From the NCBI GenBank assembly GCA_033178465.1, contig GCA_033178465.1_4726.1: 63,111 bases of DNA; one strand, given 5' to 3'. A program made the position numbers and the translations under genes. The notes below the pieces were generated by a model. It saw only the letters and a program-made list of their open reading frames with translations. It did no database searches and had not been told where the DNA came from. Below, piece by piece: positions 37,520 through 61,707 of this stretch; within the stretch, counting starts at the first letter, position 1; each line of letters opens with the position of its first letter. The stretch is from a phage.

Positions 37520-37527
37520 CAGCATAT

Positions 37528-37560
37528 TCCCTCCTCCTTCCCTGACGGGTTGGAGGAGGG
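37528..37560. terminator. conserved palindromic hairpin element (family A, inverted orientation) between convergent genes; TATG on both flanks
   Basis: CCCTCCTCCTTCCCTGACGGGTTGGAGGAGGG; followed by TTATGC; complement of upstream flank reads AATATGC. Confidence 0.6.
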
Positions 37561-37581
37561 TTATGCTCATGCTATTTTGTT

Positions 37582-40575
37582 TTAGACACGAAGGCCTTGC
37601 GCTAGCGCTGAACTGTTGCTTTGTGCGTGTTTCACAAAACTTACATCGATCGCTTCGCGTACGGACAAGATACCATCCGCTTTAACATAAAGCTCTTTCT
37701 TCACCGCACAGCGAACGCCATCGTTCTTCGCCGTATAAACACTGAGGTTCTTACCTGGTCCAAAATCATCGATTTCAACGTTCAGGATGTCGTCACCTCC
37801 TTCCTCACGAATCATCGCGATCATTTCTGCTTTAGCCACCGTACGGGACGTTAAGCATTCGTTGATAACTTTCGATACCATCGCTTGAAGGACTTGACGT
37901 AAATCCAGGTCAGCGTATTGCTTAGCTGGTAAGTACAGTGTCACGTTGAACGAAAGGGCAGCAGGAAGCGTTGTTTCCAATCCGTTTTCCACAATCACAT
38001 CCACATACCCCAGCGATTGCTTAGGATACAGCGAAATCTCTGTTTCTTCATAACAGAAATTCCTGAACGTGCTGATATCGTTCTGGATCCACTCAATAAG
38101 CTGTGTAGGAATCGCATTACGATACTCAATCACGTCTGTATCGTTCGCTAACAGATACGACGCATCAATAAAGAACATGTCCAGGTTACGCAGAACCTCA
38201 CGTTCATCGACAGGGATCGGATTACCGTAATTATCTTTCATGATGTCGCCTTTCAGATAACGATAGGCTTGGCTTCCATCACTGTTTAATTTCGGGTCAC
38301 CTTTACGATGCAGATATTTAACAGACAATGTACCATCATCACCTTGCTCAATGATAACCGAACCGGTCTCATCCGTCGCTGGAATATCTTCGTCATACAC
38401 CCACGGAATGTTCTCGGTGTAACGTTTATACGTAATCTCCGAGGCCACCGTACGAGAGCGCATCCAAAGACCATCCAGATCATAACCAAAGGTTGCGGTG
38501 AGACGTTCACGGTAGAAACAATACCCATTTTGAAGTGTGAGTTTCTTAACCAGGTAATTATCGGAAGCACTGTGTAAGATACCGTCGACATCTTCCGGCG
38601 CGTAATCCGTCACCACATGGAAGATTTCCAAATACTGCTGCAGTGATGCCCAATAATCCCGCGGTGTCGATTCATACATCGAGAACGAAGTCAATGCGAT
38701 ATATGGTTCATACGCCGTGGAATCATCGGCCAGGATTCGTGTAAAATCATAATTCGTGGTGATATCGAAGGTGAACAAACGACGACCTTGTTCATCGGTT
38801 GTCGGTGATGCCAACATCGTCGCATAATCGCCCTCACCCCGCGGATTGAACCCCAGCTGGATGTGCACGTTTTTATCGTCGAGCGCCTTCCATGCGTCGT
38901 TACCTTCTACAATGAGGCTTAGACGATATCCTTCAGCGATACGGTCCAGACGGTATCCGGTCACCATAGCGGTTAACGGAATTGTCTCGTTCGCGTCAAG
39001 GAATGCCTGTGTGCCGATCTTAGGGGCATCCAGGTAATAAGCATGGATGTCGAAATCGCTCGTTGCATCTAATACGTAATGAAACGGACTGTAGAACAAC
39101 ATGGCGTTGTTTACCGCGTTCAACTTCGCATCGGAGTTGCCTGCATTAATACGGTCAATTTCATCGTCTGACAACAGTGCGATACTTCCGTTACTGTCAC
39201 GATACAAGCAATCCGGTTTAATCGTAATACGATCGCCGTTATCAGCGACAAACTTACTTTTCACCAATGCTGCAGCTGACGTATAGAAAGACCCCATCAA
39301 CGAACCGGCTTGCGGTACGCTGTCGCTCAATTGCGGTAAATCTCGGGTTGCCAGGAACGAACGATTTGTTACGTTATCGATAGTGGTTACCATCCCATAA
39401 CCCGCATCTTGAAGCACCAGCTCTACCTGCGTTCCCGTGATCGGTACCTTGGTTTTGTTCACGCCCGCCATAACACGTTCACGTTGTTCCTCGAACGTTA
39501 ACGCAGATCGTCCACCCGACAATGCCCCTTCGCTATAAATCCCTTTAATGTTGAATGCACTTAGCGACGCACTGTATTTCTGTTCAGCTTTTGGCGACAG
39601 ATCGATGTAGTTATCTTTCCAATCGGTCACGTCGTAATCAGACGGGTCGACGCTGATTTTCCCTTTCGTCGTCAACACCTCAAGTCGAATGGTGCTTTTA
39701 TCCATCGTACCTTGAGACAAATAAATTTCAGGAACACGCCAGTTAAGTTTGTTCCCTTCTACTTGTAACGCGATGGTCGGTGTTAACGGATCGTAGATCT
39801 GCTGACTGTGTGTTGTCGCTATCTCCGTCCAGGTATCGTTATCCGACGACATGTACGCACGACAATGGTAAAACTGATCTTCGAAGGTAATGCTGCTGTT
39901 CATCCCATGAACGCTGTTAAACGGCACATCTTTTACCAGCGTTTTAAACTGGAACAACGGGATACGCATCACCAACACTTTACCCGCTTTTACACGAACA
40001 ACGCCGTACTCAACTTGGTTACTCTCCAAGGTTTGCAATGGGCTGATATTATCAGTGTTATAAACGACGCGTATCTGGTCGTGCGCTTGCACTTGGATTT
40101 CGATGGGATAATGCAACCCGAAATCCATTCCGGCTACCGTAAACGCCGTCGTACGTGGTATCACTAACTTACGGCTGTAAGAACGGCTTAAATCATCGGA
40201 GGTGGCGTTGTTTGGAATTTCTACCGCGCGATCGAGGATTTCCTGATACCCTAACGAATAAATGATTTCCGTTTTACCCGGCATTGCGAAACGTCCGACG
40301 TACGACTCATCATACATCCAACGATAAAGTTGGTTCCAGTTGGTTGCAAGCTTCGGATACAGTTCGCGAACACGGGACTCATCCCGTGCGTTCTGGTTCG
40401 CAGCCGTTGCCGTTGCAACCTCCAGCAGATAAACAAACGGGCAGCTGGGGTCAACCAGGGTTAATTCACCATCAGAAGCCAAACGGATCATATCGCTTGC
40501 AACAGCCTGCATTTCAATGGGTGAAAGCATATAGCGATTGAGCTGTTCAGCAAGATCTTTGTTGGTTACGCTCAT
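37582..40575 (-). CDS. large hypothetical protein (997 aa), possibly structural
   Basis: Long ORF, ATG at 40575 with GAGGG RBS, 3 nt after stop of upstream gene. Confidence 0.75.
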   Translation of the reverse strand: MSVTNKDLAEQLNRYMLSPIEMQAVASDMIRLASDGELTLVDPSCPFVYLLEVATATAANQNARDESRVRELYPKLATNWNQLYRWMYDESYVGRFAMPGKTEIIYSLGYQEILDRAVEIPNNATSDDLSRSYSRKLVIPRTTAFTVAGMDFGLHYPIEIQVQAHDQIRVVYNTDNISPLQTLESNQVEYGVVRVKAGKVLVMRIPLFQFKTLVKDVPFNSVHGMNSSITFEDQFYHCRAYMSSDNDTWTEIATTHSQQIYDPLTPTIALQVEGNKLNWRVPEIYLSQGTMDKSTIRLEVLTTKGKISVDPSDYDVTDWKDNYIDLSPKAEQKYSASLSAFNIKGIYSEGALSGGRSALTFEEQRERVMAGVNKTKVPITGTQVELVLQDAGYGMVTTIDNVTNRSFLATRDLPQLSDSVPQAGSLMGSFYTSAAALVKSKFVADNGDRITIKPDCLYRDSNGSIALLSDDEIDRINAGNSDAKLNAVNNAMLFYSPFHYVLDATSDFDIHAYYLDAPKIGTQAFLDANETIPLTAMVTGYRLDRIAEGYRLSLIVEGNDAWKALDDKNVHIQLGFNPRGEGDYATMLASPTTDEQGRRLFTFDITTNYDFTRILADDSTAYEPYIALTSFSMYESTPRDYWASLQQYLEIFHVVTDYAPEDVDGILHSASDNYLVKKLTLQNGYCFYRERLTATFGYDLDGLWMRSRTVASEITYKRYTENIPWVYDEDIPATDETGSVIIEQGDDGTLSVKYLHRKGDPKLNSDGSQAYRYLKGDIMKDNYGNPIPVDEREVLRNLDMFFIDASYLLANDTDVIEYRNAIPTQLIEWIQNDISTFRNFCYEETEISLYPKQSLGYVDVIVENGLETTLPAALSFNVTLYLPAKQYADLDLRQVLQAMVSKVINECLTSRTVAKAEMIAMIREEGGDDILNVEIDDFGPGKNLSVYTAKNDGVRCAVKKELYVKADGILSVREAIDVSFVKHAQSNSSALAQGLRV

Positions 40576-40578
40576 TTA

Positions 40579-41785
40579 TTATCCCTCGTAATTTTGCGGA
40601 ATGGTGGTACGGACAAGATCGCGACTGAACGTATCCGGTGGTAACGCCGACGGCTCAAGATCCAGATAGAATTCGTTGTAATCATCAGCGGGTACGAACC
40701 AAAGAAGCTCTGAGGTCAACGGATGAATAAATGGATACATATCGACACGATACGACATGATTCGACGCTCGTAGGGTGAGATAGGTACCAACTCCTCATC
40801 TTCAAGGAACGTACGGGTATCGTTCTCACCGTAATAGAACATCAGGACAAGTCGATTGAATTCATCCTTCAGAATCTCATCAAATGCGTTGTTACCAACC
40901 GCTTGGTATGGAATGGTGATACGTTCGTTATCTTGCGTGAAGGGTTTATCGATACTGTAGTTAGCCATATTACCGATCGGTAACCCGACGGGAAACATCG
41001 CGGTCGGTGCGAAGATATAACGAACATACATCCCAGTCGGATCCAAGATGATACGATAACATCTTGTCCAGTAATCCATTTCATTGTCGATGATGGCCTG
41101 AGGGCTTGGCGTCAGTTCACCATTATGCACGCCTGCGATGTAAATCAACCAAATATAATGAAGGAACATGATAGGGTTACCCATGATGTTCTTGAACGTC
41201 GCGTTCAGGTTATAGGGTTGAAACATATCCACTGAACCGTCAGCCATCACAACGGTTTCTTGGCGTAATCCCGGTTTACCCTGATAGACCTGCATTTCCA
41301 TGTCATTGAAACCGCTGATATCCGTCAGGTTGTCCGTCAGTATACTTATGAATGGATTGCGCTCATCGACGATGGCACGTCCTCGATGGTTCCGCTTTCT
41401 GGCACCCACAGGGTCCAAGTAATCACGGACAACAGCCTGAATGCTGTTAGGGTTATCCGTGCGTAACGACCACAAACGTCGATCTCGTTTTAAGTTCGCG
41501 TCGGTAAGATGTAAATTAGGTCGTGTAAAGAAGGTAATACCGGCATGATCGCGGTTAATCGGAATCGGGCTGTTACCCGGAATAGGTGATACATTCCGAT
41601 ACCGTCTGGCGATACTGTCCTCGTATGTCCCTTGACCGACACTGGTACGAATATTCTTCCGCGCTATTGCCCAATCCGAATCAGTGAATAACACCGCATT
41701 GCCCGCTGCCTCCACAGCTTCGGGTGTTAACGACGCATTATTCTCCTGAATGGTTTGAATAGCTTGGTCGTAGTAATTAGACATT
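40579..41785 (-). CDS. hypothetical protein (401 aa), possibly structural
   Basis: ATG at 41785 with AAGGAAAG RBS (track start 41817 is TTG); diverges from 41819 gene. Confidence 0.7.
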
Positions 41786-41818
41786 TTCTTTCCTTTATTT
41801 GTAAATAAGGATTTCAAT

Positions 41819-42925
41819 ATGGTAGCATCAGAAATTGCCGACGCTGTTAACGTTGTTGCGTCCGGTATCGCTAAAGTCTACGAAGTTAATAAACTTATCC
41901 AGCCAGGTTCGCTGGTTGAACTCTCACAACCTTCACGCGTTATCGCGCCGTTGATCTTTGAACGTGAGCTGTATTATAGCGACGCACGCAATGCGTTAGG
42001 CAACTGCATGCGCACCGCTGAAAACATGTATACCGGGTTCTATTTACTGGCGTTGAATACCATCATGCAGGTGGGTAATATCAGTGTCGATAAAACGCTG
42101 GGTCGTGTGAACCCAAACCGTAACGCTAACCTGATGGATAAGGCTGTTAAATTAGCGCTGGAAAGTGCGGATAGCAAAAGCCTTGTTTTCCTTGATGACA
42201 AAGGATTCAACCTGCAGGGGAAACAAAAAGATAGCCTCGATGTTGGAGCCAGCGACGCGGCGATCGAATTGCTGAACAAAGATGCAAACGCGGTCACCGG
42301 CAAGTTCTTAACCGTGACGCTGACCGATGGTCAGGCAACGATGAAAATGCCGTTGAACATCAGCATGCGTATCGCAAGTTCACCAGCGGAAGTGCTTGCG
42401 TCGATTTTAGCGATTGGCGGTCCACAGAACACCTGGCGAGCACGTTGGCATCGCATGATGGCAGGTGAGCTGTCTTTCTGGAGCGATATGATCCTGCTTA
42501 GCGATCTGGTTCGTGAACACAAACGAATCTCACGTATGGATAAAGAGGGTATCCGCAAGGCTGTTAATGCTGCACGCATCAATGCCGCAAAAGCTGCAGC
42601 GAGCACAAAGATCCCTTCTTCTGGAGCCATCGCCTCCACCTATATCATCTCTAAGGCTAACCAGGAAGCCATCGAGCGTAAGATCGGACGTCGTTTATCT
42701 GACTATACCACACGTCAGAAAGTCATGGCTGAAGCCCTCGCAATGCAGTTGATCATCATCGACGAAGCTGAAGAGATGGTGACCTTCTATTTCCACAGCT
42801 TGGATCAAGGGACCACCGTAAGCTTCAAGCAACTGGAAAAATCCAACAGTTCGTCAACTTCGGGTTCCGATCTCCTGACGATCCTCCAGGCGCTCCGTAC
42901 CGGAAACGTCCCGCAGATTCGTTAA
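41819..42925 (+). CDS. hypothetical protein
   Basis: 368-aa ORF, AAGGA RBS. Confidence 0.75.
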   Translation: MVASEIADAVNVVASGIAKVYEVNKLIQPGSLVELSQPSRVIAPLIFERELYYSDARNALGNCMRTAENMYTGFYLLALNTIMQVGNISVDKTLGRVNPNRNANLMDKAVKLALESADSKSLVFLDDKGFNLQGKQKDSLDVGASDAAIELLNKDANAVTGKFLTVTLTDGQATMKMPLNISMRIASSPAEVLASILAIGGPQNTWRARWHRMMAGELSFWSDMILLSDLVREHKRISRMDKEGIRKAVNAARINAAKAAASTKIPSSGAIASTYIISKANQEAIERKIGRRLSDYTTRQKVMAEALAMQLIIIDEAEEMVTFYFHSLDQGTTVSFKQLEKSNSSSTSGSDLLTILQALRTGNVPQIR

Positions 42926-42964
42926 TACACGTAACCTGTTTCGAAATAGCATAGGTGCTCACTC

Positions 42965-43867
42965 ATGGCAATTGATTTTAAAGAATTCATTCGCGGTTTG
43001 AAGCCGCTTTTTAAACGCACCGGTGTTGCTGACGCACTTGAATCGATCCGTGACGAAATCAACAACACCGCGATTCCTTACTACGAGACATCCGCTTCGC
43101 TTCTCCAAAAAGGGGAAAGCGCCTTATGGAAACTTGCTGATAAGGATCTGCACCAGCGTTTAACCCGCGTTCGCTCTGGAAGCTGGGTAGAAAACGTTCA
43201 CTTAGCGCTACGCAATGCTGTTGATCTAATTCCAGAAATTGTTAAACGTGTTAACAAAAACCTGGAAATCGATGTTGCTGCTGACGGCCTAAGTTTCAAA
43301 GAAGCCGCTCTGGTACGTCTTGTTGAGTCCTTGGGCTTCTACGTTAGCTATGCTCGTACGCTGCTTCGTGCAACGGTCATCTGCGAAAGCATGCCGGGTG
43401 GTGATAAAGCACTTGGTGAGTTCTTCACCAAAAACGAGATTGCTTACCTGACCGCCAATATGTACGGTTTCGCCATTGCCACCGAGGTGTTGTGTGGACA
43501 GAAACAACAGATCCTTGCTGGGTTGGATAAAATCCCGGATGTTGTGGTTTCTGATGAAGACGGTGTTGGTAATGGCTTATACAACGCGGGTAATACCGAC
43601 CCGATGCGTATGGGCTCATGGTCCGACACTCAAATGACCAACACGCTTATTTACCGTTATCGCATCTGGCGCAGCGAACGTGAAGAAGCGTCGTTACAAG
43701 CAGCCAAAGAAGAAGCCCAAGCGTTGGAGTACTGGATTTTGTCACTGAAGCAAAAACAGCAGAATGCAGGCAACGATCCAAAAATCCAGCAGCAGATCGA
43801 ATATCACGAAGAGCGACTGAAGAAACTTCGTTATGATATTAAACGAAAAGAAGAGGCGGCTGTATGA
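42965..43867 (+). CDS. hypothetical protein
   Basis: 300-aa ORF; ATGA overlap with next gene. Confidence 0.75.
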   Translation: MAIDFKEFIRGLKPLFKRTGVADALESIRDEINNTAIPYYETSASLLQKGESALWKLADKDLHQRLTRVRSGSWVENVHLALRNAVDLIPEIVKRVNKNLEIDVAADGLSFKEAALVRLVESLGFYVSYARTLLRATVICESMPGGDKALGEFFTKNEIAYLTANMYGFAIATEVLCGQKQQILAGLDKIPDVVVSDEDGVGNGLYNAGNTDPMRMGSWSDTQMTNTLIYRYRIWRSEREEASLQAAKEEAQALEYWILSLKQKQQNAGNDPKIQQQIEYHEERLKKLRYDIKRKEEAAV

Positions 43868-44394
43868 ATGCACTTCGTGACGTCCCTTTAACGTTATACG
43901 GTACCGGGTTCTTTGGATTTCCGGTTAACGGTGTAAAACGTCAGGAGAACTACGATCGTGACGTTGTTAGTCTGTATCAGCGTCTGGTTGACGGTACTCC
44001 TCTCGATGACTGGAAATACGAGCGTCAGGTTCTTTCCACCCTTTATCGTTTGATGTACCCCATTACCGACTGGGTGGAAATGAACAGCCATAACCCAAAT
44101 CTGAACTTCACCAGTCTGGAGTTTATCCGTGATACACTACGATTCATTCACACGGGTAGACGAGACACGAACGTTCAGATTGCGGGTCAATTGATTGATA
44201 ACTGGTCAGATCGTCAGTCGTTAAGTTCACACCAACGTCTGGAAAGCAGCGGTAAACTTATGAGTTATATCACGTTGTCAGACGAAGAGATGGTGCGTAC
44301 TTGGCTCCATTGGGACAATGGCATCCAGGACATCATATGTACTTTGAATGCGGTGTTTGGGCAACCTATGGCACCGGGTTTTAAGGGCTTTTAA
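43864..44394 (+). CDS. hypothetical protein
   Basis: 176-aa ORF; followed by hairpins 44383-44433. Confidence 0.7.
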   Translation: MNALRDVPLTLYGTGFFGFPVNGVKRQENYDRDVVSLYQRLVDGTPLDDWKYERQVLSTLYRLMYPITDWVEMNSHNPNLNFTSLEFIRDTLRFIHTGRRDTNVQIAGQLIDNWSDRQSLSSHQRLESSGKLMSYITLSDEEMVRTWLHWDNGIQDIICTLNAVFGQPMAPGFKGF

Positions 44395-44458
44395 GTGAGC
44401 TGACGGTTCACTTAAGCCACATTAGCTAATGTGCAATTTATTGTAAAGGAAACAAATT

Positions 44459-45781
44459 ATGCCTTCTATTTTTGATCGTCTTGTCGCAAATCCATCTAAC
44501 GCACAGCTGGTTCAACTGGCTGCTGAGATCGATCCGGATGCAGCGGCAACCGTTGAAGCAGAACCGGCAGCTGATGCTGCAGCAGCGGATGAAACCGTTG
44601 TGGCTGAACTGACCGAACGTGCTGAAATCGCTGAAGATACCGCAGCTGAAACCGAACTGGCTATCGAAGTTCGTGGTGATATCGAGCAGGTTGATGCTGT
44701 TGTTATCGAAATTGCAAAAGACGACGAAACCGCAGAAGCCATGGACGAAGCCATGGATGAACTGACGGAAACCGTTGTTGCAACCGAAAGCTACCTGAAA
44801 GACGGTGGTATGTCTGCACAAACCGCTCAGGAACACATGCGTAACCTGAAACGCCTGTGTGGTACTATCGGTTTCAAACTGCCGGAAACCATGCCGTCCT
44901 TCGAAAGCTTCGGTGGTTCCGCTTCCCGCTACGATGCAACCAACATGATCTTCCTGGAAGAACAAAAATGGTGGCAGAAACTGTGGGCAACCATCAAGAA
45001 CTTCCTGAAAACTTCCTGGGAAACCTTCGTGAAGTTCATGGATCGTATCTTCGACGGCGCGACCAAACTGAAAGCACGTGCTGCTAAACTGAAAGAAATG
45101 ATCGGCAAGCGTAAAGGCGTTGCTAAAAATACCAAAGTTAAACTGGGTAGCGGCGTTTCAGGCTACATCGGTGGCGACGATCTGGTTACCGGCGCGACCA
45201 AAATCGCTGACACCTTCGAGAAAGCAATGAAGGCTGCTGACGATCGCGCTGATAAATTCGTTGGCACCGTTGTTGCTAAATCTCACACCGAGTACGCTGA
45301 TAAACTGAACGCTCCGGCGATCGCTGACGTTGCTGGTCCGGCAGGTTGGGGTTTCAAAGCCAACGATGGTAAAGTAACCTGGGAACGCTCTGGCGAAGCA
45401 AAAGAAGTTGAAGCTACCGTCCTGTCCCTGAATCAGCTGGCTGCTGCGGTTAGCGGTGTTGAAGTACTGGCTGACAAACTGCTGGCGCTGAAAGGCAACA
45501 TCGGTAAGAAATCCCAGGGCTTCAAAGACGCTGTTAAATTCGGTGACGATATGGAAGCCGATCTGTCTAAGAAAGGCGAAGTTTCCGCTCAGGAAAAACA
45601 GCGTGTTCAAGCTGTACTGTCTGCACTGAAAGACGCACGTTCCTGCTACGTGAACCCGCAGACTGGTCTGATGAAATACGGTGTTCAGGCAGGTAACGCT
45701 GTCCTGGATGGCGTTGCTAAAATGCTGAAAGAGTACGGCGGCCAGGCGGCTGAGAAACCGGCTGACGCAGCACAGCAGTAA
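44459..45781 (+). CDS. putative abundant head-internal/virion protein, member of paralogue family; acidic Ala/Glu-rich N-terminal region
   Basis: 440-aa ORF; strongly host-optimised codons (CTG, CGT, GGT, AAA, GAA, ACC, TTC); N-terminal motif MPSIFDRLV shared with neighbours (SLFD-type); AAGGAAAC RBS. Confidence 0.7.
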   Translation: MPSIFDRLVANPSNAQLVQLAAEIDPDAAATVEAEPAADAAAADETVVAELTERAEIAEDTAAETELAIEVRGDIEQVDAVVIEIAKDDETAEAMDEAMDELTETVVATESYLKDGGMSAQTAQEHMRNLKRLCGTIGFKLPETMPSFESFGGSASRYDATNMIFLEEQKWWQKLWATIKNFLKTSWETFVKFMDRIFDGATKLKARAAKLKEMIGKRKGVAKNTKVKLGSGVSGYIGGDDLVTGATKIADTFEKAMKAADDRADKFVGTVVAKSHTEYADKLNAPAIADVAGPAGWGFKANDGKVTWERSGEAKEVEATVLSLNQLAAAVSGVEVLADKLLALKGNIGKKSQGFKDAVKFGDDMEADLSKKGEVSAQEKQRVQAVLSALKDARSCYVNPQTGLMKYGVQAGNAVLDGVAKMLKEYGGQAAEKPADAAQQ

Positions 45782-45803
45782 TCAGTTAATAAACTGACAT
45801 ATT

Positions 45804-45835
45804 CCCTCTCCCTTCCCTTACGGGTTGGGAGAGGG
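45804..45835 (+). terminator. conserved palindromic hairpin element (family A) followed by TTCTATGCC
   Basis: CCCTCTCCCTTCCCTTACGGGTTGGGAGAGGG immediately after stop of 44459-45781. Confidence 0.6.
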
Positions 45836-45883
45836 TTCTATGCCGCTCAGGTTTATCTTTTGAATCATTACTGGAGACAACAC

Positions 45884-47200
45884 ATGGTACACATACCGCT
45901 ATTTGCGACCCAAGGCGATATCAGCCTTGAGGCGTTTGAAAAAGATCCTATTGTTGCTGAGGCGCTTGCTGTGGAGCCTACAGCCGATGTCATCGATGCT
46001 GATGGCGTTGAATTACGTTTGGCGACAATCGACGAACATGAAGATGCACTTGATCGTGCTTTCCCTGCTGTTGCCGCATTACGGGAAATCAGTTTTGATG
46101 TTGCTCCGACTATCGAATCGGCTAACTACAGTGACGTTGCATTAGTTCGTAATGTGCAAGAATCCGCATCGATTGCTCTGGGTCTGCCCTCCGAAGCATT
46201 GCTGACGCCAACCGATCGTGTTGAGGTTGGAGAAGCTTTGGTTGTTGAAGGGTTTAAGGACACCGTTGTAAAAGCCATGAAAAAGATCTGGGATATCATT
46301 GTTGATATTGCCCTGACTCTGGCAGCAGCCTTTGAGAAGCTTACCCGTCTTGTTTACGACGAGACGCGCAATTTTCAGAAAGCTGTTGCAGACCTCGAAC
46401 AAATGCCTAAAGGTAAATACGAGGAAAATAAAGAAGTTGCATTTAAAGCGGAGTGGCGGACGCTTTTCCCTAACCGTAACAAAGTTGGTGGTGTAGACAC
46501 GCTGAAAAGCAACATCGATACCTTCAATCAGATGTTCCTTAAATCGGACGGTTATTCAGTTATTGATGGGTTAGGGTTAAACATCATCGACTTCCATTTG
46601 GATAAGGTTGAAAAACTTCCCGTTGATTATCTGACTTTCTTGAACGCTGTCAAATCGACACTGGAAAATCGCGGTTCTGTGGAAGGTACTGACGTTATCA
46701 CTCCAACGGTTTCCGGAAAACGTATCCGCTACGTCAACGGTGCAGTCTTCTTGAAAGAATTCGATGCGTCAAAAGACAATATCATCGATGCGGTTAAACG
46801 TTACCTCGACTTGGATATTGTCGTTGAAGATGTTGAATGGGATAGTGACCCGGAAACGTACGTCCTACCGACACCTGACGATTTGCGTAGCGTTCGACAA
46901 CTGACGTTCGCGAAAGATCTGTTGATGGTAACAAAACGCGGACGCGCTTTCTCTGAGATATTCTCTCGCAATAAAATTCGCACCATGGAGCGCATCCAGG
47001 AAATCACCATGAAACGCTTCAACGAGCAGAATTTTGACGCAAGCTACCAACCGTATGTCGAAATCTATCCTAAGCTCGTTAAGCGCGCGATTCTGCTTTG
47101 TGGTAAAGAGAACCGTATTGAAAACCAATTCGCTTACCAATATCTTCGTGCATTGACCTCATTTATCAACACTCTCGTTAAAGCTTATACCAAAGGTTAA
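45884..47200 (+). CDS. paralogue-family virion protein (putative head-internal/ejection protein)
   Basis: ATG at 45884 with GGAGAC RBS (track start 45860 is TTG); paralogous to 47210-48499 (e.g. VALVRNVQESASIALGL…VVEGFKD vs VALIRQIASTSAANLGM…VLEGFKE). Confidence 0.75.
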   Translation: MVHIPLFATQGDISLEAFEKDPIVAEALAVEPTADVIDADGVELRLATIDEHEDALDRAFPAVAALREISFDVAPTIESANYSDVALVRNVQESASIALGLPSEALLTPTDRVEVGEALVVEGFKDTVVKAMKKIWDIIVDIALTLAAAFEKLTRLVYDETRNFQKAVADLEQMPKGKYEENKEVAFKAEWRTLFPNRNKVGGVDTLKSNIDTFNQMFLKSDGYSVIDGLGLNIIDFHLDKVEKLPVDYLTFLNAVKSTLENRGSVEGTDVITPTVSGKRIRYVNGAVFLKEFDASKDNIIDAVKRYLDLDIVVEDVEWDSDPETYVLPTPDDLRSVRQLTFAKDLLMVTKRGRAFSEIFSRNKIRTMERIQEITMKRFNEQNFDASYQPYVEIYPKLVKRAILLCGKENRIENQFAYQYLRALTSFINTLVKAYTKG

Positions 47201-47209
47201 GGAACTAAC

Positions 47210-48499
47210 ATGGCCCGCATCTCTCTTTTTGATAACGTCGATAAAAACGCATTCGAACTCGCATTGCTCAGCGCCGAAGATCTTCTTGCGGCAATTCCAG
47301 CGGAGCAAAATGATCCCAACGCAGAAATCGAAGAGGACGAAGTTGAGTTGGTGATTCAACGTACCGACGAGACAATCGATGAATCCAGCGAGCTGGCTGA
47401 AATCGCGGTGCGTACCTCAGCAACGCTGGAAGATACCGCATACATGATCGCACCTACGATCCCTGAAGCACGTGCGAGCGACGTCGCCCTTATCCGTCAG
47501 ATTGCTTCGACGTCAGCAGCTAACCTGGGGATGTCCGATGAAGACATGTTCCAAGCCGACGATCGTTTGGTGGAAGGGCAGGCTATCGTACTGGAAGGCT
47601 TTAAAGAACGCGCAGCACAAGCGTTATACGCAGTTTGGGTAATCATTGCGAATATCGCTGAGCAACTGTTCAAACTGTTCCAGATGTTGTTCAAGAACCT
47701 GGTCGTTGCATACAACAAAATTGTCAAGATCGCAACCGCTGTGAATAAAGGTGAGCGCCATATCAAACAGTTGGATAAGCCCACTGGAAATATGGTCAAT
47801 ATGTTCCCTAATGCTAAATCAGCGAATGCCGTGTTTGCAAGCAAGCATATCGAACAACTCGCTGCAAGCGCAAGCGGGACGGATTCACTGTTTAAGCATG
47901 TGGCTGATATCAATAAAAAGGTCGCAGACCTCACTGACCTCACACTGCTTCCGTCTATCTTAGACAAATACCTGCTGGCGATCAAATCAGCTCTGAATAA
48001 AGTTGTTTTTCCAGAGAGCGGTGGGAAGGAATTCGTTATTCAAGGTCTCGACGCTGTTGAAAACGAACGTGATGCGATTAAAGCCTATACGTTGGTGAAA
48101 AATATTCGGGTTGAGGCCGAGATGACGGTGGCCGGTGAGATAGAGAACGCAAACATTTTCAAAGACGATAACGAACTGAAAGGTGCATTGACTTCCTATC
48201 TTAACGTGTTCCGTACGATAGACTCCTCTTATTTCCACATGGTTGAAGCTTTGGCCGGTTCTGTGGAGCGTACCGCTAAACTCAACGGCATGAAAATCAA
48301 AACGAAGTGGGGTGATATGCTCGACAAGCTGCCTGAAGCCGATCGTGAAACCATCCGTCCTTATGTAAGTGCGGTTTCTGAAATGGCGCGCTTAAGTACT
48401 GTATTGTCAACCAAGATTCTTCGCGCTTCGATACGCCAATATGCGGATGCTGTATTTGCTGCAGCGAAATACTTCGACGCTGTAACCGAAAAAGCATAA
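47210..48499 (+). CDS. paralogue-family virion protein (putative head-internal/ejection protein)
   Basis: 429-aa ORF; N-terminus MARISLFDNV; acidic propeptide-like segment; paralogous to 45884-47200. Confidence 0.75.
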   Translation: MARISLFDNVDKNAFELALLSAEDLLAAIPAEQNDPNAEIEEDEVELVIQRTDETIDESSELAEIAVRTSATLEDTAYMIAPTIPEARASDVALIRQIASTSAANLGMSDEDMFQADDRLVEGQAIVLEGFKERAAQALYAVWVIIANIAEQLFKLFQMLFKNLVVAYNKIVKIATAVNKGERHIKQLDKPTGNMVNMFPNAKSANAVFASKHIEQLAASASGTDSLFKHVADINKKVADLTDLTLLPSILDKYLLAIKSALNKVVFPESGGKEFVIQGLDAVENERDAIKAYTLVKNIRVEAEMTVAGEIENANIFKDDNELKGALTSYLNVFRTIDSSYFHMVEALAGSVERTAKLNGMKIKTKWGDMLDKLPEADRETIRPYVSAVSEMARLSTVLSTKILRASIRQYADAVFAAAKYFDAVTEKA

Positions 48500-48508
48500 C
48501 CACTATAT

Positions 48509-48541
48509 CCCTTCCTCCTTCCCTTACGGGTTGGAGGAAGG
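48509..48541 (+). terminator. conserved palindromic hairpin element (family A) followed by TTTATGGCG
   Basis: CCCTTCCTCCTTCCCTTACGGGTTGGAGGAAGG after stop of 47210-48499. Confidence 0.6.
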
Positions 48542-48647
48542 TTTATGGCGTTGGTATCCGGTTATCTTTTGACTTCTGAATCAACGGTTCAGAAGGTAAA
48601 TGGCGGACATGATCACCCGCCAAGATTTTCCTACGTAGGAGTCCCAA

Positions 48648-49949
48648 ATGGAAAACGTGTTACAACAACCCATGACATCGTTGTTTCAAGGGATTGATGA
48701 TGAACCTGTAGAATCGTTCGGTATCGCTGGCAATATTCTCGATGCCAGTAATATTGAGAATCAGTTTCACTCAATCGACGAAACAAACACGGTGATGAAA
48801 GAAGGTGAACAACACCTTCAAACATTAAATAAACTCAGGTTGGATATCGTCCCAAACATGGCTGAAGTTGAAGAACGCGATATTAACACCATCAAACATA
48901 TCGCAACAACCGCAGCTGCCGGAATGGGAATGGACCCAAACCAAATCATCGAGGGTCTGGAAGAGGAAACTTCCAGCGGGATGAGCTTGAACATGGAAAG
49001 TTTTGACAAGACCGCAAAAGAAGCAACCCGAGCGTTATGGCTTTACATGAACGAGTTATACCGCTACGCGATCGATATCTGTAATCGTTGTTATCGTCGA
49101 TTCGTTCGTCAGGTGAAGCCGTTATTAAAGAAAGCGGCTGCGTTGAAAACTATTTCCGAATACGATGTTAATGAAGATAACGCATTCTGGGAGAACTTTC
49201 CTTACAACTGGCGATATCTTCATCCGAAAGGTGGTGCCGTAAGCAGTATTGCTGATTTACGACAAACCGCAGAAAACATCGTGACGAACACAGGAATCCT
49301 CGCAGCATGGCATCGTCAACTCGATCCGTTATTAATGCAGCTACTAAAAGCACCATCAGCGGATAACAAAGAAGGTATCGCTGCAGAAAACGAAGCCTGT
49401 TGGGAGAATATTCTCGAGGTCATCAACGAGGCGTTATGCGAGAAGCCGTTAACACCTGCCGGAACAGACGATCTGGTCGTTGACGTTCCTGTTGGTGCTT
49501 CCTACCTTAAATTACACAACATCGAAGACGCATCAGGAACGCAATTCAGCGTTGTGTGGGAAGCCGTATCTTTCCAATCAGCAAAAGACGGATTCCGTTT
49601 CTTACCGTTAAACGATGTTATCGACGGAACCAACGCGATCATCAACGCATTAAGTACGTTATGGTCTACGCTACGACAGTTGGAATTTAAACGTTGTCTT
49701 GAAGCAAGCCTTGCCGACCAGGACGAATGGATTCAACCTTACGAGCGTTTGCTGCAACAGATGGACAACGACGATACCACCGCATCCGCTATCGTTCAAC
49801 GTGTGGGTATCGCGCGTAACGTCGTCGGCTTCCAGGCGGTTGCTTTTGCCCGATTCCTGTTAACTGTCTGCGACGTCATCGACGGTCTTAATGATTATCT
49901 TGACGCGCATCTCGAACTTGAGGAAACCAGCAATGCTGCAGACCTATGA
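48648..49949 (+). CDS. paralogue-family virion protein (putative)
   Basis: 433-aa ORF, AGGAG RBS; N-terminal MTSLFQGIDDE motif and segment IKHIATTAAAGMGMD resembling other family members. Confidence 0.7.
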   Translation: MENVLQQPMTSLFQGIDDEPVESFGIAGNILDASNIENQFHSIDETNTVMKEGEQHLQTLNKLRLDIVPNMAEVEERDINTIKHIATTAAAGMGMDPNQIIEGLEEETSSGMSLNMESFDKTAKEATRALWLYMNELYRYAIDICNRCYRRFVRQVKPLLKKAAALKTISEYDVNEDNAFWENFPYNWRYLHPKGGAVSSIADLRQTAENIVTNTGILAAWHRQLDPLLMQLLKAPSADNKEGIAAENEACWENILEVINEALCEKPLTPAGTDDLVVDVPVGASYLKLHNIEDASGTQFSVVWEAVSFQSAKDGFRFLPLNDVIDGTNAIINALSTLWSTLRQLEFKRCLEASLADQDEWIQPYERLLQQMDNDDTTASAIVQRVGIARNVVGFQAVAFARFLLTVCDVIDGLNDYLDAHLELEETSNAADL

Positions 49950-51039
49950 CGGACAGATTCAAGCGTTAAGCTTGTTAAAAACATTACCTGTGCCAGAGAC
50001 AGCAACGCAACGACAAATTCACCAGCTTATTTATCAGCAAGCAGGCGGTATTCCGGCAACCGGTTATACCACAGAAAGTGCTGATCTCCTCACGATGGAA
50101 TCGTACAATCAGCTTGCGATGAAAATCATCAAAGCCATCATCGATGCGATCTGGACAACGTTGCGGAACATCACTGCGTTTATCGCCCGGTTTATCGATC
50201 GTAGTCGCGCACTACAGCTCGAACTCAGCAACATCCGCCGTCACTACACAAAAGCCGTTGGTCGTAAACCCATCGCGCAAAGCTTCGAAGCTTCGTCAAC
50301 GCTGGCACCGCACCTACGGTATGGGAACAGTTTTGGATTCGACTTCACAACTGGGAATACGTTATACAAACAGAATTTGGCAATCGCTGAATATCTCTTG
50401 TCTTCGTCGTTCCGTGATGATTTCAAGCAGTTCGCTAATACGTTAGATAGAGCGCTCGACATTATCTTAAAACAGACGGATACCGCATTAATCGATGTGA
50501 TTAATCGCGATGCGTATACGTTATTGCATAAAGTCTACAGTACGCTGAACGAATCGAGACTTGTCAACGTAACGTTACTGGGTAACCGTACGCTACGACT
50601 CGATCAGGTTACCACCGCAGGTTCTGGTTCAATTCAACAATCCCTCGCTATTCAATCCGCACGGTTTGAAGTCCAGGATGTACCGTCAGTTGAACGGGAT
50701 ATGGTGGTTACAATGCCAACATTAGAACAAGTTGGTGTGCTACTCGAGTCGGTAAATACGGGTGTTGATTTACTGGTTAGTTACCATCGTAAAAAGTACG
50801 CCAACGAGTTACTCGAAATCGCAGGGAATCTACAAGCAAAACTTAACGACGTTTATCGTCAACAAGGTCAGTTGTCAGTTACTACTGCTTCTGATGATGC
50901 TATGGTAGCCCTTTCTCGATACCTTACAGCGTATACCGCGTGGATCAAGGTGCCGCTTGTGGGCTATGCCGAGTTCTTTACGAATTCAACAGCGGCTATG
51001 CTTGATGTCTCTCGCGAGGCGCTGAAATATTACTTTTAA
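49933..51039 (+). CDS. hypothetical protein, possible divergent family member
   Basis: ATG at 49933 with AGGAAA RBS, overlapping end of previous gene; ~368 aa. Confidence 0.65.
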   Translation: MLQTYDGQIQALSLLKTLPVPETATQRQIHQLIYQQAGGIPATGYTTESADLLTMESYNQLAMKIIKAIIDAIWTTLRNITAFIARFIDRSRALQLELSNIRRHYTKAVGRKPIAQSFEASSTLAPHLRYGNSFGFDFTTGNTLYKQNLAIAEYLLSSSFRDDFKQFANTLDRALDIILKQTDTALIDVINRDAYTLLHKVYSTLNESRLVNVTLLGNRTLRLDQVTTAGSGSIQQSLAIQSARFEVQDVPSVERDMVVTMPTLEQVGVLLESVNTGVDLLVSYHRKKYANELLEIAGNLQAKLNDVYRQQGQLSVTTASDDAMVALSRYLTAYTAWIKVPLVGYAEFFTNSTAAMLDVSREALKYYF

Positions 51040-51054
51040 GAGGAATAACGCTTT

Positions 51055-54000
51055 ATGAAAAAATCGTTAGCTGATCTGATGCGTAAGTCGCATCTTAACC
51101 TGGAAAGCGGCGATACACCTATCGAAGTCAAAGCAACGCTTTCTACTGATAAAGAAGAGCAAGTGATCGCATTACCTACAGCGGCACGGCCAGACAGCAT
51201 CGAAGCGACGATCGAATCAGATACGCTCGAGGAAGGGGCTACCGTTGATGACGCTGTTCGTGTGATTCGTAGCACGGGTGAAAACGGCGAGGATGTCGTA
51301 CGTGCTGTTATTGTTACCCGTCCTATTGATGGTAGTTTGCGAATCCGTTTCACACCGAGCAACGGTGGTGTGACCATGGAAGACGGTAACGATGTTCAAC
51401 CGTTCGTTCTGATCGCGGTACCGACCGCACCTGGCGAAGAGCCGAAGAACCCGTATCCGGCAAACGCACCGACCGAGACACCGGCACCGAAAGTGACCAA
51501 TGACCCGACCGTTAACGCTGACCGTGACAACCTGAAGAACAAGATTCAGGATGCGGCTAACGCCATCGATCCAACCAATCCGGCACAAATCGAACAGGCT
51601 GCGCAACCGGCAGAAACCACCGAAGGTGTTAAAGGCAATGTCGTCGAACCGGAAAAAGCAGAACCTGTTGCTGAAACAGCAGCTGAGGTAGCCGAGGCGA
51701 CGCCAGAAACCAAAACGACGGAAGAACCCATCAAAGTCACCGTGATTAAACGTGTCGTAGAGAAAGTAGAAAAGGTTGAAGATACCGTCGCTAACGAACA
51801 ACCTGTTGTCGACGCTAATGACGGTAATACCGGTGAGCAGAAAGCTGAAGCAGTTGCTCAGGAAACAGAACTGCAAGGCGATGTTGAGGTCGATAGCGCC
51901 GACGAAACGTCCACCGAGGATAGCACCACCGAACCCGCGTCCGAAGAACCTACCAACACCGACGCTGATGCTGATGCTACCGACACCACAACCACCGAAG
52001 GTGACGACGATGAAGACGACGAAAACGAAGAAGATGAAGATCTGAAACAAGAGTCGTTCGAAATTCATCAAGAGCTGGAAGCCCGCGGCGTATTAGATGT
52101 TCCTGTTGTTGAACAGCGCGCATCTGTTATTCTCGGCGAAGGTGAAACAGATGTAACCGTCATTGAAACAGAACAACCGTACATTCCTGGCACCATGGTG
52201 GTACGTCGTCTTGATGGGGATAAGAGTGTTATTGTTCGCCGTACTCGTTACGCTGAACGCTTTAACGCTGATGGTCAGGGTGAAGCGATCGCCATTGTCG
52301 ACCCTACTCTGCAAGGCGAACTGAAAATGGAATTCCGTCCGGCTGAAGGTCCGATGGAAAGCTTCGAGATTCGTCCTGAAATCAAAGACGAATACATCAT
52401 GGAATCGTACAAACAGCTTGATGTCGCACTGAACAGCGATCTCAATCTGGAAGACGGGGAAAAGCAACCGGGTCGCTTTAAACAGATTCTGAAATCGGTT
52501 TACGAAGCGGTCGCGAAGTTCTTAAAAGCCCTCGTGGCGCGTTTGAAAAATCTCTTTGGTGTTAATAAGAAAAAAATCGAAGAGAAGGCCGACAAACTGA
52601 CCAAAGAACAACGCACAGCACCAGTGATGAAACTGCTTCCTCCGCCGAGCGATACCAAGAAGGTTGACGTTGAGTGGAATAAACTGGATACGCTGCTCGC
52701 AAACGACTCGAAATCTGTCGATAAGATCGTAAACGCCGTCAAAGACAGTAAACGTATTGCGGACGCGTCGAAGAAATATTTCGATGAGTTAAAGAACAGC
52801 AAGGAAGGCGAGCAAGTTCAGCATCCAGCTGAAATGAAAGCAGCTCTTGGAATGGCGGGCGTGAAAGCGTTCGGATATTCTATCGACGACGCGTTAAACG
52901 GCATTCGTGAGTTCCGTGACGAACTTAGCGCCATGAAACAGCAGGATGATGCTGTGCCGTCCAACGTTAGCGTTGAAATGCTGATCGATGCATCAACAAA
53001 ACTGTTTGACGAAGACCTCCTGAAAGCAGCTACTCAACTTCAGGAGACGGCTGAGCAGTTACTCCGCGATCTGGACAAAGTGGAAAACGAATCAGGCGCA
53101 CGCTACGTCACGCAGCGCACACGTACCCTGATGAACTTTGCAACAACTGCATGCACCGTTTACGGATTCGCCGCAAAAGAACTGGGCGATGTTACCGTTC
53201 GTATACTCACCGCTGTCGCAGCGGCTGATAACGGTGATCTCAAACAGGAAGAGTATCAGGATGTTGCCGGTGAAAACGATCCGGTTGTCACCATCGAGAC
53301 ACTGGAAGGCGATGCTGGTACTCGTGTTGTTGCTGAGGCGGAAATCGTTGATGATCCTGCTGTGGTGGAATTCGTTGAGCGTGCTGAAGAAGCGCAGCGA
53401 AATCTGGCTATCGGTCGCCACGCGGTGAACGCGGTGGAAGGTATTCTGGTAGCGGCACGTGAGATCGGTCCTGATAACTTCCAGGGTAACGTCGAAGCTA
53501 CCGAAATTGCGATGGAAGGATTCATGGATACCGTTAAGAGCGCGGTCAACCGTATCGGTAACTGGATTGAAACCAACCACCGTTACTATACCGCCGCTAC
53601 GGCTCCATGGGATAAGCTGTTCGCCGAAACACAGCAAGCGTTGGCCAAAGCGCGTCGCGGTAACCCAGCAGCAGAACGGATTATTCTGAAACGTTTCATC
53701 CGTCATCTTACCATCGGTGGTGAACCTGTCACCGATGTGAAGAAGCTCATCGCTGCGTTGGGTGAAATCAAAATGCTTGGTAACATGACGCGTGAATTAA
53801 TCGTTGCTATCAATCGTGAGCTCAGCGACGTGCGGAAGAGCAACCAGTCCGAAACATCCGCTGGATCGGTTGTTGGTCTGAAGCGTATTCCTATTCAGAA
53901 ATGGGATAAGCTCATGGTCGCTACCGTACAACCGTGGAAAGACAGCGATCGTAAAGGTGTTGGGTCCAAAGCGTATCTTGGTGAAACGCACATCGTGAAG

Positions 54001-54414
54001 GTGAGCGCGACCTATGCGACAACGCGCAACAACCCGAACGAGGAAGCAGCGAAACTGATGCAGTGGATCTACACCGGTATCAATCGCCAGTTTACGGTTT
54101 CTGACGACCTCACCAGTGAGGAATTACCGGTAGCTACTATCAGCGAACTGGAGGCAGTGCTGCGTGCGGCTCGTGAAGCACATGAAGCTTGGCTTATTGC
54201 TGACAACGCCATGCAGACCCTGCGTTCAATCGATAAATTCCTGGATAGCGAACTCAACGTTGAGAACGATGTTAATAATGTCGTTAACTACGGTATTGTT
54301 CTCGGCCTGGAAGATTGGCTGTTCCATCCGGCATTGACGTTATGGCAACAGTTCAATAAACCGATGCAAGCGGTGCTTTTCCTCATCAAAGCCCATTGCG
54401 GTGCCTACAAGTAA
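51055..54414 (+). CDS. large virion protein (1119 aa) with extended acidic low-complexity region
   Basis: N-terminus MKKSLADLM (family-like SLxD motif); region ~51700-52060 encodes Glu/Asp/Thr-rich stretch (…TEGDDDEDDENEEDEDLKQE…); AAGAGGAA RBS. Confidence 0.75.
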   Translation: MKKSLADLMRKSHLNLESGDTPIEVKATLSTDKEEQVIALPTAARPDSIEATIESDTLEEGATVDDAVRVIRSTGENGEDVVRAVIVTRPIDGSLRIRFTPSNGGVTMEDGNDVQPFVLIAVPTAPGEEPKNPYPANAPTETPAPKVTNDPTVNADRDNLKNKIQDAANAIDPTNPAQIEQAAQPAETTEGVKGNVVEPEKAEPVAETAAEVAEATPETKTTEEPIKVTVIKRVVEKVEKVEDTVANEQPVVDANDGNTGEQKAEAVAQETELQGDVEVDSADETSTEDSTTEPASEEPTNTDADADATDTTTTEGDDDEDDENEEDEDLKQESFEIHQELEARGVLDVPVVEQRASVILGEGETDVTVIETEQPYIPGTMVVRRLDGDKSVIVRRTRYAERFNADGQGEAIAIVDPTLQGELKMEFRPAEGPMESFEIRPEIKDEYIMESYKQLDVALNSDLNLEDGEKQPGRFKQILKSVYEAVAKFLKALVARLKNLFGVNKKKIEEKADKLTKEQRTAPVMKLLPPPSDTKKVDVEWNKLDTLLANDSKSVDKIVNAVKDSKRIADASKKYFDELKNSKEGEQVQHPAEMKAALGMAGVKAFGYSIDDALNGIREFRDELSAMKQQDDAVPSNVSVEMLIDASTKLFDEDLLKAATQLQETAEQLLRDLDKVENESGARYVTQRTRTLMNFATTACTVYGFAAKELGDVTVRILTAVAAADNGDLKQEEYQDVAGENDPVVTIETLEGDAGTRVVAEAEIVDDPAVVEFVERAEEAQRNLAIGRHAVNAVEGILVAAREIGPDNFQGNVEATEIAMEGFMDTVKSAVNRIGNWIETNHRYYTAATAPWDKLFAETQQALAKARRGNPAAERIILKRFIRHLTIGGEPVTDVKKLIAALGEIKMLGNMTRELIVAINRELSDVRKSNQSETSAGSVVGLKRIPIQKWDKLMVATVQPWKDSDRKGVGSKAYLGETHIVKVSATYATTRNNPNEEAAKLMQWIYTGINRQFTVSDDLTSEELPVATISELEAVLRAAREAHEAWLIADNAMQTLRSIDKFLDSELNVENDVNNVVNYGIVLGLEDWLFHPALTLWQQFNKPMQAVLFLIKAHCGAYK

Positions 54415-54430
54415 TCCGTACGCATAAACA

Positions 54431-54450
54431 GCCCGCCCTTCGGGGTGGGC
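54431..54450 (+). terminator. GC-rich hairpin followed by TTTATGCTG
   Basis: GCCCGCCC-TTCG-GGGTGGGC after stop of 51055-54414. Confidence 0.55.
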
Positions 54451-54502
54451 TTTATGCTGTCGACCATCATGTGATATCTTATCTTTCAAACAGGAATCTG
54501 CG

Positions 54503-59723: not shown

Positions 59724-59756
59724 CCCTCTCCCTTCCCTTTACGGGTTGGGAGAGGG
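59724..59756 (+). terminator. conserved palindromic hairpin element (family A) followed by TTCTATGCTG
   Basis: CCCTCTCCCTTCCCTTTACGGGTTGGGAGAGGG after stop of 58352-59719. Confidence 0.6.
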
Positions 59757-59783
59757 TTCTATGCTGTCTTAAGCGCATCACTC

Positions 59784-61632: not shown

Positions 61633-61707
61633 ACCTTAACAAACTTAAATCAGTCTATGCATTGATTCTTCTATCCGCAACCCACCTAACATAGAAAGGT
61701 AAAAACG

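Follow-up and report, generated by a model that had tools for sequence, protein, structure and literature searches.

The 63,111-nucleotide (nt) phage contig GCA_033178465.1_4726.1 (NCBI GenBank assembly GCA_033178465.1; the whole stretch is hereafter called the window) carries a recurrent GC-rich palindromic hairpin, one copy of which lies between two genes at 45804-45835 on the plus strand. The upstream gene (44459-45781), which encodes 440 amino acids (aa) and is orthologous to gp058 of Escherichia phage vB_EcoM_Goslar, ends with a TAA stop codon at 45779-45781. It is followed by a complementary-strand TATG, read as CATA on the plus strand (45798-45801), and then by the composite hairpin, whose 9-bp outer stem (CCCTCTCCC/GGGAGAGGG) is separated by a TT/TT internal loop from a 3-bp CCC/GGG stem capped by a TTAC loop; the predicted energy of the fold is -27.8 kcal/mol. 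The CATA pairs with the downstream UAUG in the prediction and lengthens the stem. The 3' tail TTCTATGCCGCT (45836-45847, plus strand, with TATG at 45839-45842) is the local version of (T)TTATGCYGT, and a T-rich tract, GTTTATCTTTTGA, follows on the same strand at 45851-45863. The next gene (45884-47200, plus strand, 438 aa) starts 42 nt past the G of the TATG and is preceded by a Shine-Dalgarno (SD)-like GGAGA at 45873-45877. This hairpin and its relatives are probably factor-independent transcription terminators of a Goslar-like chimallivirus, read by the phage multisubunit RNA polymerases (RNAPs), a reading to which we assign a probability of about 80%.

Judged by nucleotide identity, the window is a close relative of the E. 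coli jumbo phage Goslar (Chimalliviridae). A 4-kb segment round the 45804 copy is 95.8% identical to Goslar, and the window aligns with Goslar 48126-108089, reverse strand, at 92-96% identity except for a non-homologous stretch at 59876-61648. As a nucleus-forming jumbo phage that encodes multisubunit RNAPs of its own, Goslar belongs to the kind of phage that hosts phiKZ-type terminators; an RNAP beta-like subunit gene lies within the window at 18980-20281. A search for related loci with the RNAP subunit returned Goslar-like contigs only, and more distant relatives for comparison were obtained via tblastn. Genome-wide statistics were taken from the full Goslar genome (NC_048170). Matches to sigma70-like promoters in window positions 37000-56000 numbered 12, about half of the 23.8 +/- 5.8 found in shuffled sequence, a deficit in keeping with transcription that does not depend on the host RNA polymerase.

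The family element is a 32-33 nt composite hairpin of the form CCCTCYYCC-(AA/TT)-CCC-NNNN-GGG-(AA/TT)-GGRRGAGGG. An outer stem of 9 bp (CCCTCYYCC/GGRRGAGGG) leads through a symmetric internal loop, AA/AA or TT/TT, to an inner stem of 3 bp (CCC/GGG) that is closed by a loop of 4-5 nt. Six full copies and one cut by the edge were found in the window, all at the places that a first-pass annotation, made from the letters alone, had listed (9768, 14882, 37529, 45804, 48510, 59724 and the truncated 63098). The position after stop codons that it had described was borne out at all seven named sites, with 4-22 nt between stop and hairpin. Goslar has 15 copies, 8 of them between convergent genes. The degenerate family pattern matched the window four times against 0.00 expected from 100 shuffles. 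Folded as RNA from either strand, the copies reached -25 to -32 kcal/mol, with z values of -5 to -7. An alignment of 14 distinct family sequences, drawn from four Goslar-like genomes, had 5 of its 12 base pairs altered on both sides and 98% of its cells paired, and none of 500 shuffles reached the observed covariation; loops drift freely among the copies and stems are kept. Rfam 15, searched across the whole window at the gathering threshold, gave no matches.

Among the individual copies, that at 9768-9806 (hairpin 9768-9797, plus strand) is in tandem context, 8 nt after a stop codon, and has an 8-bp outer stem, a core in the AACCCGTAAGGGAA orientation and the tail CTGCTATGG. Two copies lie between convergent genes and read on both strands: 14875-14922 (hairpin 14882-14913), with TATG in TTATGTTACCGT on the plus and CTTATGCTGT on the minus strand, and 37522-37568 (hairpin 37529-37560), with TTATGCTC and AATATGCTGT, respectively. 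The complementary-strand TATG that had been noted at these two sites and at 45804 is present in each. The orthologue of the 14882 copy, Goslar 93445-93476, is annotated as a 'putative transcriptional terminator'. A tandem copy at 48510-48573 (hairpin 48510-48541, plus strand) has arms CCTTCCTCC/GGAGGAAGG, the tail TTTATGGCG and a T-rich stretch, GTTATCTTTTGAC, at 48561-48573. The copy at 59724-59767 (hairpin 59724-59756, plus strand) begins 4 nt after a stop codon, has a 5-nt loop and the tail TTCTATGCTGT, and is followed by an early-type promoter motif at 59787-59807. Only the 5' part of the last copy lies inside the window (63098-63111, plus strand); its Goslar orthologue, 48106-48139, is complete and occupies a convergent site. 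Beyond the 48510 copy, the leader of gene 48648 holds two more hairpins at 48575-48622, CTTCTGAA...TTCAGAAG and TGGCGGAC...CCCGCCA (48601-48622). The second is an annotated terminator in Goslar (60927-60948) despite lying shortly ahead of a start codon, and may be an attenuator or leader structure.

The hairpins are followed by a conserved sequence. On the plus strand the tails begin with TTCTATGC at 45836 and 59757, TTATG at 14914 and 37561, TTTATG at 48542 and CTGCTATG at 9798. The TATG that had been reported after plus-strand hairpins is therefore present, and the conserved tail exceeds it: (T)TTATGC[C/T]GT, beginning 1-3 nt past the stem. In 40 Goslar sense hairpins the bases after TATG were C (25/40), T or C (34/40), G (25/40) and T (21/40). 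The same tail is borne by hairpins of quite different sequence, and the TATG that had been claimed for four of these was found in all of them. They are the GC-rich hairpins at 4550-4592 (plus strand; tail CAATATGCGCG; a second hairpin stands ahead of it at 4493-4513), at 21061-21104 (plus; CTTTATGCCGTT) and at 21556-21606 (plus; TTCTATGCTGT, then an early-type promoter motif at 21625-21645), and the tetraloop hairpin at 54430-54461 (plus; TTATGCTGT), whose orthologue, Goslar 55080-55101, is annotated as a 'putative transcriptional terminator'. The window also holds a canonical terminator for contrast, GGTGGGGTTCGCCCCACC-TTTTTTT at 22173-22197 (plus strand), with a T7 run and without TATG; its orthologue, Goslar 86155-86172, is an annotated terminator. 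Several Goslar orthologues in NC_048170 thus already have the label 'putative transcriptional terminator', and most family copies do not. The two ends of the Goslar record (1-110 and 237245-237307) have one sequence in common, a family hairpin tail, TTATGCCGTCAAGC, and then a 16-17 nt A run, so the linear record overlaps itself at a terminator.

Association of the tail with hairpins was well above expectation. In the window, with hairpins of either strand counted, TATG lay within 6 nt past 12 of 76 strong hairpins (1.3 expected), and in the whole Goslar genome past 58 of 335 (6.3 expected). Its offset from the last paired base peaked sharply at 1-3 nt (37/79 sites). Intergenic TATGYYG had a stable fold ahead of it in 7 of 10 cases in the window and 25 of 40 in Goslar, as against 1/24 and 15/131 in coding sequence. 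Within the same 6-nt limit, the TATG of Goslar hairpins was strand-asymmetric: it followed 22 of 45 tandem-sense hairpins (49%) and 21 of 34 convergent ones (62%), and only 7 of 47 antisense (15%) and 7 of 200 intragenic hairpins (3.5%). TATG in divergent intergenic regions was common and not universal, and was set aside as evidence. Since TATG is at least as frequent at convergent ends and also lies upstream of genes driven by early promoters, the hairpin-adjacent TATG is part of the terminator. A genome-wide avoidance of the tetranucleotide was discarded as evidence. TATG and CATA rank third and second among the under-represented 4-mers of Goslar coding sequence, and the same ratio was obtained in SPN3US and in an unrelated viral contig of 53% GC, which shows the apparent avoidance to be an artefact of codon phase in the Markov expectation.

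The same class of element is known from phiKZ-like phages. ONT-cappable-seq (Oxford Nanopore Technologies sequencing of capped transcripts) of phiKZ yielded the motif 5'-BCCYCCCCHWWDGGGRRGGBYTTATKYYGT-3' across 61 terminators (Putzeys et al. 2024, PMC10914365), and the main terminator motif A of phage 201phi2-1 resembles it, with terminators of this type active in a terminator trap (PMC11512511). Direct inspection of phiKZ 100-175 kb showed GCCCTCCC-loop-GGGAGGGC followed by (A/T)TTATGYYGTT, often on both strands. The Goslar-lineage hairpins share with phiKZ terminators the GC stem whose 5' arm is rich in C and T and whose 3' arm is rich in G and A, the TTAT(G/T)YYGT that follows it, the placement after stop codons in the direction of transcription, and bidirectionality at convergent gene pairs; the 45804 tail, TTCTATGCCGC, is a near match to TTATKYYGT with one additional C in the spacer. 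They differ in a longer stem (9 bp + 2x2 loop + 3 bp, about 32 nt, against about 8 bp and a tetraloop in phiKZ) and in the spacer before TATG, which is often TTC or TT. Comparison with 201phi2-1, a phage of another host and genus, was made by the text of the paper: the motifs belong to the same family, and its longer stems, which are built from two co-occurring motifs (A/B) and terminate more strongly (PMC11512511), parallel the composite stem of Goslar. Hairpins followed by TATG were likewise in excess in Serratia phage KpGz_1 (8 vs 1.1 expected), Erwinia phage RAY (10 vs 1.1), Ralstonia phage RP31 (9 vs 2.0) and phiKZ (17 vs 1.4). In these four other lineages TATG followed 28 of 51 convergent hairpins (55%) and 11 of 39 tandem-sense ones (28%). 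No such excess was found in SPN3US, Vibrio phage VP4B or Bacillus phage PBS1, where T-runs dominate.

Position, strand asymmetry, structure and likeness to the mapped phiKZ/201phi2-1 motif are the grounds on which we favour termination, and they equally support the bidirectional terminator that had first been proposed; use in both directions at convergent genes is well supported. Anatomy, enrichment, strand asymmetry, covariation and the match to the mapped terminators were observed directly. The formation of transcript 3' ends at these elements, the polymerase that responds to them and the part played by each tail base are inferred. In the mechanism that we propose, the nascent RNA would fold right after the stop codon into a very stable hairpin with a C/U-rich arm opposite a G/A-rich one. 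There would be no long U-tract; the UUAUGCYGU tail would start 1-3 nt past the stem, and the polymerase would stall and release near UUAU/G, 4-7 nt past the stem. At about one quarter of the sites a T-rich or oligo-T tract at +11 to +25 might, as a reasonable guess, act as a back-up stop. At convergent ends a single element with a tail on both strands would act in both directions, because the stem is a near-perfect palindrome.

Stable GC-rich hairpins after a stop codon, shared by convergent genes, are also features of Rho-independent and bidirectional bacterial terminators. The family differs from these in having no run of at least five U adjoining the stem, and few sites in the window, such as 22173, are canonical; release must therefore rely on something else. 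Short non-template-strand pause signals are familiar: sigma70-dependent -10-like pauses are of this kind, the TTNTTT pauses of B. subtilis NusG aid intrinsic termination, and multisubunit polymerases share the elemental pause consensus G-10 Y-1 G+1. By analogy, the Goslar-lineage tail may be a short sequence past the hairpin with the capacity to stall, its UAU/G fitting U(-1)/G(+1) and the G-rich 3' arm lying at about -10. The stall could be caused by this elemental pause consensus, or else by a non-template TATG that is caught by the promoter-recognition pocket of the polymerase.

Several observations weigh against termination at these sites. The family tails (TTCTATGC, TTATGC, TTTATGG) do not show the canonical at least five T in eight positions beginning 0-2 nt past the stem, and a generic scan for intrinsic terminators over 37000-56000 does not report 37529, 45804, 48510 or 54430; the assumed efficiency of termination is therefore extrapolated from phiKZ and 201phi2-1. 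TATG is absent after about half of the sense hairpins, so the tail is not obligatory. The literature searched gave no transcript-end data for Goslar-like phages. An RNA-seq time course of Goslar exists (bioRxiv 10.1101/2023.09.20.558163), and this one study found maps no terminators. Furthermore, 3' ends obtained by ONT-cappable-seq cannot by themselves separate termination from trimming back to a protective hairpin, which is a point in favour of RNA processing. On that explanation the hairpin would protect a 3' end and UAUG(C) would mark the cut of a host or phage ribonuclease (RNase) that splits polycistronic transcripts. The published 3'-end maps cannot exclude such trimming, the hairpins are very stable, and a single-stranded tail containing A and U adjoins the stem. 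We know of no phage RNase with UAUG(C) specificity, and the tail is kept in phages of Pseudomonas, Erwinia, Ralstonia, Serratia and E. coli, which favours a phage-encoded reader over diverse host RNases. The 201phi2-1 terminators of the same type also halt transcription in a reporter trap without phage factors (PMC11512511). Processing is accordingly unlikely, and factor-independent termination remains the preferred reading.

The tail raises a second question, since TATG, with G as +1, is the late promoter of the phiKZ non-virion RNAP (nvRNAP) (PMC4666361, PMC12809450), whose beta-like subunit gp123 binds the TATG bases in the opened non-template strand (PMC12809450). The first-pass annotation had taken phiKZ late promoters to be little more than TATG; its identity as the nvRNAP late promoter with G at +1 stands, and its sufficiency does not, because TATG by itself is insufficient for initiation in phiKZ. 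The elements might thus be terminator-promoter cassettes, in which the hairpin ends the upstream transcript and TATG is an nvRNAP late start (G = +1) that drives the next gene, possibly through re-initiation by the polymerase that has just terminated; this would add a second function and is compatible with termination. In Goslar, TATG without a hairpin peaks 30-49 nt ahead of start codons (18/56 vs about 9 expected), including those of the major head and tail sheath genes, and at several tandem sites the G of the hairpin TATG lies 42-51 nt before the next start codon. One hairpin-less copy in the window, TCTATGCATTG at 61654-61657, is 51 nt ahead of the start codon at 61708, is kept in Goslar, and is a candidate stand-alone TATG start. 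In a pairwise alignment of phiKZ gp123 with Goslar gp039, with 29% overall identity, 7 of 14 residues of the gp123 pocket are identical (S144, F151, K158, K190, H331, S334, Q466) and 2 are conservative (H185Y, Y406F), and N186, S330, N398, Y399 and S402 differ.

Most copies point the other way. Hairpin TATG is as frequent or more so at convergent sites, where a promoter would yield only antisense RNA, and it occurs in early-gene clusters and directly ahead of early-type TATATTAC promoters, as at 21556 and 59724, whose downstream genes have early promoters of their own. The conserved, published tail continues past TATG (CYGT). Goslar hairpin-less copies 30-50 nt ahead of late genes have the identical TATG of the phiKZ promoter; however, no hairpin precedes the validated phiKZ promoter P119L, and its downstream sequence is different and lacks CYGT, whereas the TATG of Goslar hairpins is fixed 1-3 nt from the stem and is commonest at convergent ends (62%, as against 49% in tandem). 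The available portions of the phiKZ and 201phi2-1 papers report no start sites that coincide with terminators. As a class, the elements do not have the placement expected of promoters for a following gene; individual tandem copies are compatible with it, such as 45804, which has a 42-nt leader and whose G at 45842 would be +1, and there an initiating role of TATG is plausible by analogy. The fused minimal promoter put forward by the first-pass annotation is therefore no general explanation, and the cassette may be entertained only tentatively. It is rather doubtful that hairpin TATG is read by the same non-template-strand pocket of the nvRNAP in both capacities, stalling elongation so that a terminator without a U-tract fires and re-anchoring the enzyme at G(+1) for re-initiation.

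A T-rich box had been described some distance past the hairpins. T-richness was found at the places given and is strand-specific, and no single motif underlies it. The 11-mer TTATCTTTTGA occurs only at 45853 and 48562-48572, ahead of two distantly paralogous genes (E = 2e-9), and a search of the intergenic DNA of the window and of Goslar for GTTATCTTTTGA, allowing up to 2 mismatches, brought up nothing except the two named sites and the Goslar orthologues of these; a discrete box was abandoned for want of a motif shared more widely. A role as an early or middle promoter was rejected as well, 45851-45871 resembling the early motif only in ATTAC and leaving no room for a leader. The general feature is that the transcribed strand is T-rich or carries oligo-T at +11 to +25 past the hairpin: at least 8 T in 10 were present past 27-29% of sense hairpins and about 2% of antisense or intragenic ones, and the T content of the tract reaches 53-58% at convergent sites. 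The tract thus follows the direction of the terminator, not the downstream gene. Oligo-T runs of T9-T12 sit 10-20 nt past terminator hairpins, not adjoining them, at Goslar 36846, 48107, 108131, 146607 and 200229 (minus-strand readings), with two runs of about T10 at 108131. The genes at 45884-47200, 47210-48499 and 48648-49949 are consecutive, encode about 430 aa each and are distantly paralogous to one another (E = 2e-18 and 2e-9); no kinship to the three was detectable for the gene before them (44459-45781, 440 aa).

The early-type motif mentioned above has the form GTTTATTTC-N5-CTATATTAC(C/T)TA(A/G)GGTGATAA and lies at 21625-21645 and 59787-59807, past the TATG of the 21556 and 59724 hairpins. 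Its TATATTAC core recurs ahead of genes in Goslar (about 9 sites) and in intergenic regions of phiKZ, KpGz_1 and SPN3US, and phiKZ 108063 and 120657 show the same order of terminator tail and then early promoter. An AT-rich early motif centred on -10 has been described (PMC7598289, PMC8244752), and the motif with the TATATTAC core is very likely the early promoter of the virion RNAP. Downstream of the 59724 copy, two paralogous genes (257 and 300 aa; 59872-61632) occupy a slot in which Goslar has only a 62-aa open reading frame (ORF), gp047. The terminator, early promoter, 5' untranslated region (UTR) and first codons ahead of this slot are conserved, so the swap starts just inside the coding sequence. 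The arrangement recalls the T4-type promoter-early stem-loop (PeSL) cassettes attributed to Arbiol et al. 2010, in which a stem-loop and an early promoter reportedly border strain-variable accessory genes: the hairpin and early promoter at 59724-59807 likewise precede a slot with different genes in Goslar and the window. It differs in that the exchange begins only after the 5' UTR and start codon, which are conserved, and comparison of the locus between Goslar and the window gave no sign that the hairpin mediates the gene swap. Elsewhere in the window, the large gene at 5230-9198, orthologous to the Goslar tail fibre gene gp090, has internal repeats at 7644-8739 that align to numerous places within Goslar 99.5-101 kb (66-81% identity), a diverged, repeat-rich region.

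The near-identity of the copies, of which Goslar has 15 and the window 7 and whose inner core is invariant, could also mean that the palindrome acts as DNA, as the site of a dimeric DNA-binding protein or as a repeat resembling repetitive extragenic palindromes (REP) or miniature inverted-repeat transposable elements (MITE), its transcriptional context being incidental. Comparison of the four Goslar-like genomes revealed that the central 14 nt are inverted, AACCCGTAAGGGAA to TTCCCTTACGGGTT, at the same locus and between fixed flanks; this was seen at 14882-14913 and 45804-45835 in comparison with Goslar, IMGVR_UViG_3300045988_173921 and IMGVR_UViG_3300011560_000001. A centre that inverts between strains implies a DNA-level hairpin or inverted-repeat exchange. 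Loop variants comprise GTAA, GTCA, GTGA, AGCA and AACA, and in the Goslar orthologue of the 14882 site both arms are altered jointly, CCTCC/GGAGG to CTCCC/GGGAG. The flipped centre and exchanged arms look like the products of inverted-repeat exchange and copy-to-copy conversion, and they indicate that the orientation of the centre is not under selection.

Nevertheless, none of the 14 sites examined is empty in any strain available (up to four Goslar-like genomes), and neither presence/absence polymorphism nor target duplications were seen, which is not the behaviour of a mobile REP or MITE. The exact 18-mer core occurs in IMG/VR in Goslar-like contigs; the only other matches are two in coding sequence, which are coincidental, and a conventional terminator that is unrelated. 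Its confinement to Goslar-like contigs and the absence of insertion polymorphism led us to reject a mobile element. The flanking TATG tail and T-rich tract are strand-specific and run along transcription, unrelated hairpin sequences bear the same tail, and loops that vary over stems that covary signify a structure rather than a sequence-specific site. A function at the DNA level is thus very improbable. The 33-nt family with its CCC-GTAA-GGG inner stem is instead a lineage-specific variant of the terminator, homogenised by copy exchange and centre flipping. An unrelated viral contig of 53% GC (IMGVR_UViG_3300020577_003345) has, at about 1950-2000, a hairpin built in the same way, CCCCC-AA-CCC-GTAA-GGG-AA-GGGGG, with a conventional T-tract after it, by either convergence or chance.

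The 3' arm and tail were also considered as a translation signal. A GGAGG lies about 6 nt ahead of the ATG within TATG, and the arm might serve as a Shine-Dalgarno sequence for mini-ORFs or re-initiation; ORFs of 3-17 codons, for example MPLRFIF* at 45840, do begin there. These mini-ORFs are not conserved in length, frame or sequence, the SD-like arm is buried in a stem of -25 to -32 kcal/mol, and Serratia phage KpGz_1 has the two arms in the opposite order (GGGAGGGC first, GCCCTCCC last) and still retains the TATGCCG tail. A role in translation is scarcely credible on this evidence, and it was set aside.

As a terminator, the element is largely ordinary, the Goslar-lineage form of a known class. 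The combination of hairpin and TTATGCYGT is nevertheless a reliable marker of operon boundaries in Goslar-like and many other chimalliviruses, where most copies escape standard terminator finders and only a part of them is annotated in the Goslar record. The terminator tail holds the exact tetranucleotide that the phiKZ nvRNAP needs for a late start and is conserved in phages of five host genera, an overlap on which the available portions of the literature contain no discussion. If the overlap is not functional, the elements are a routine lineage-specific terminator family. If it is functional, it would explain termination without a U-tract and bear on what, beyond TATG, defines the promoters of these phages. 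Should TATG be read in both capacities, the element of release would itself be the promoter element, and termination and re-initiation would be coupled within the phage nucleus.

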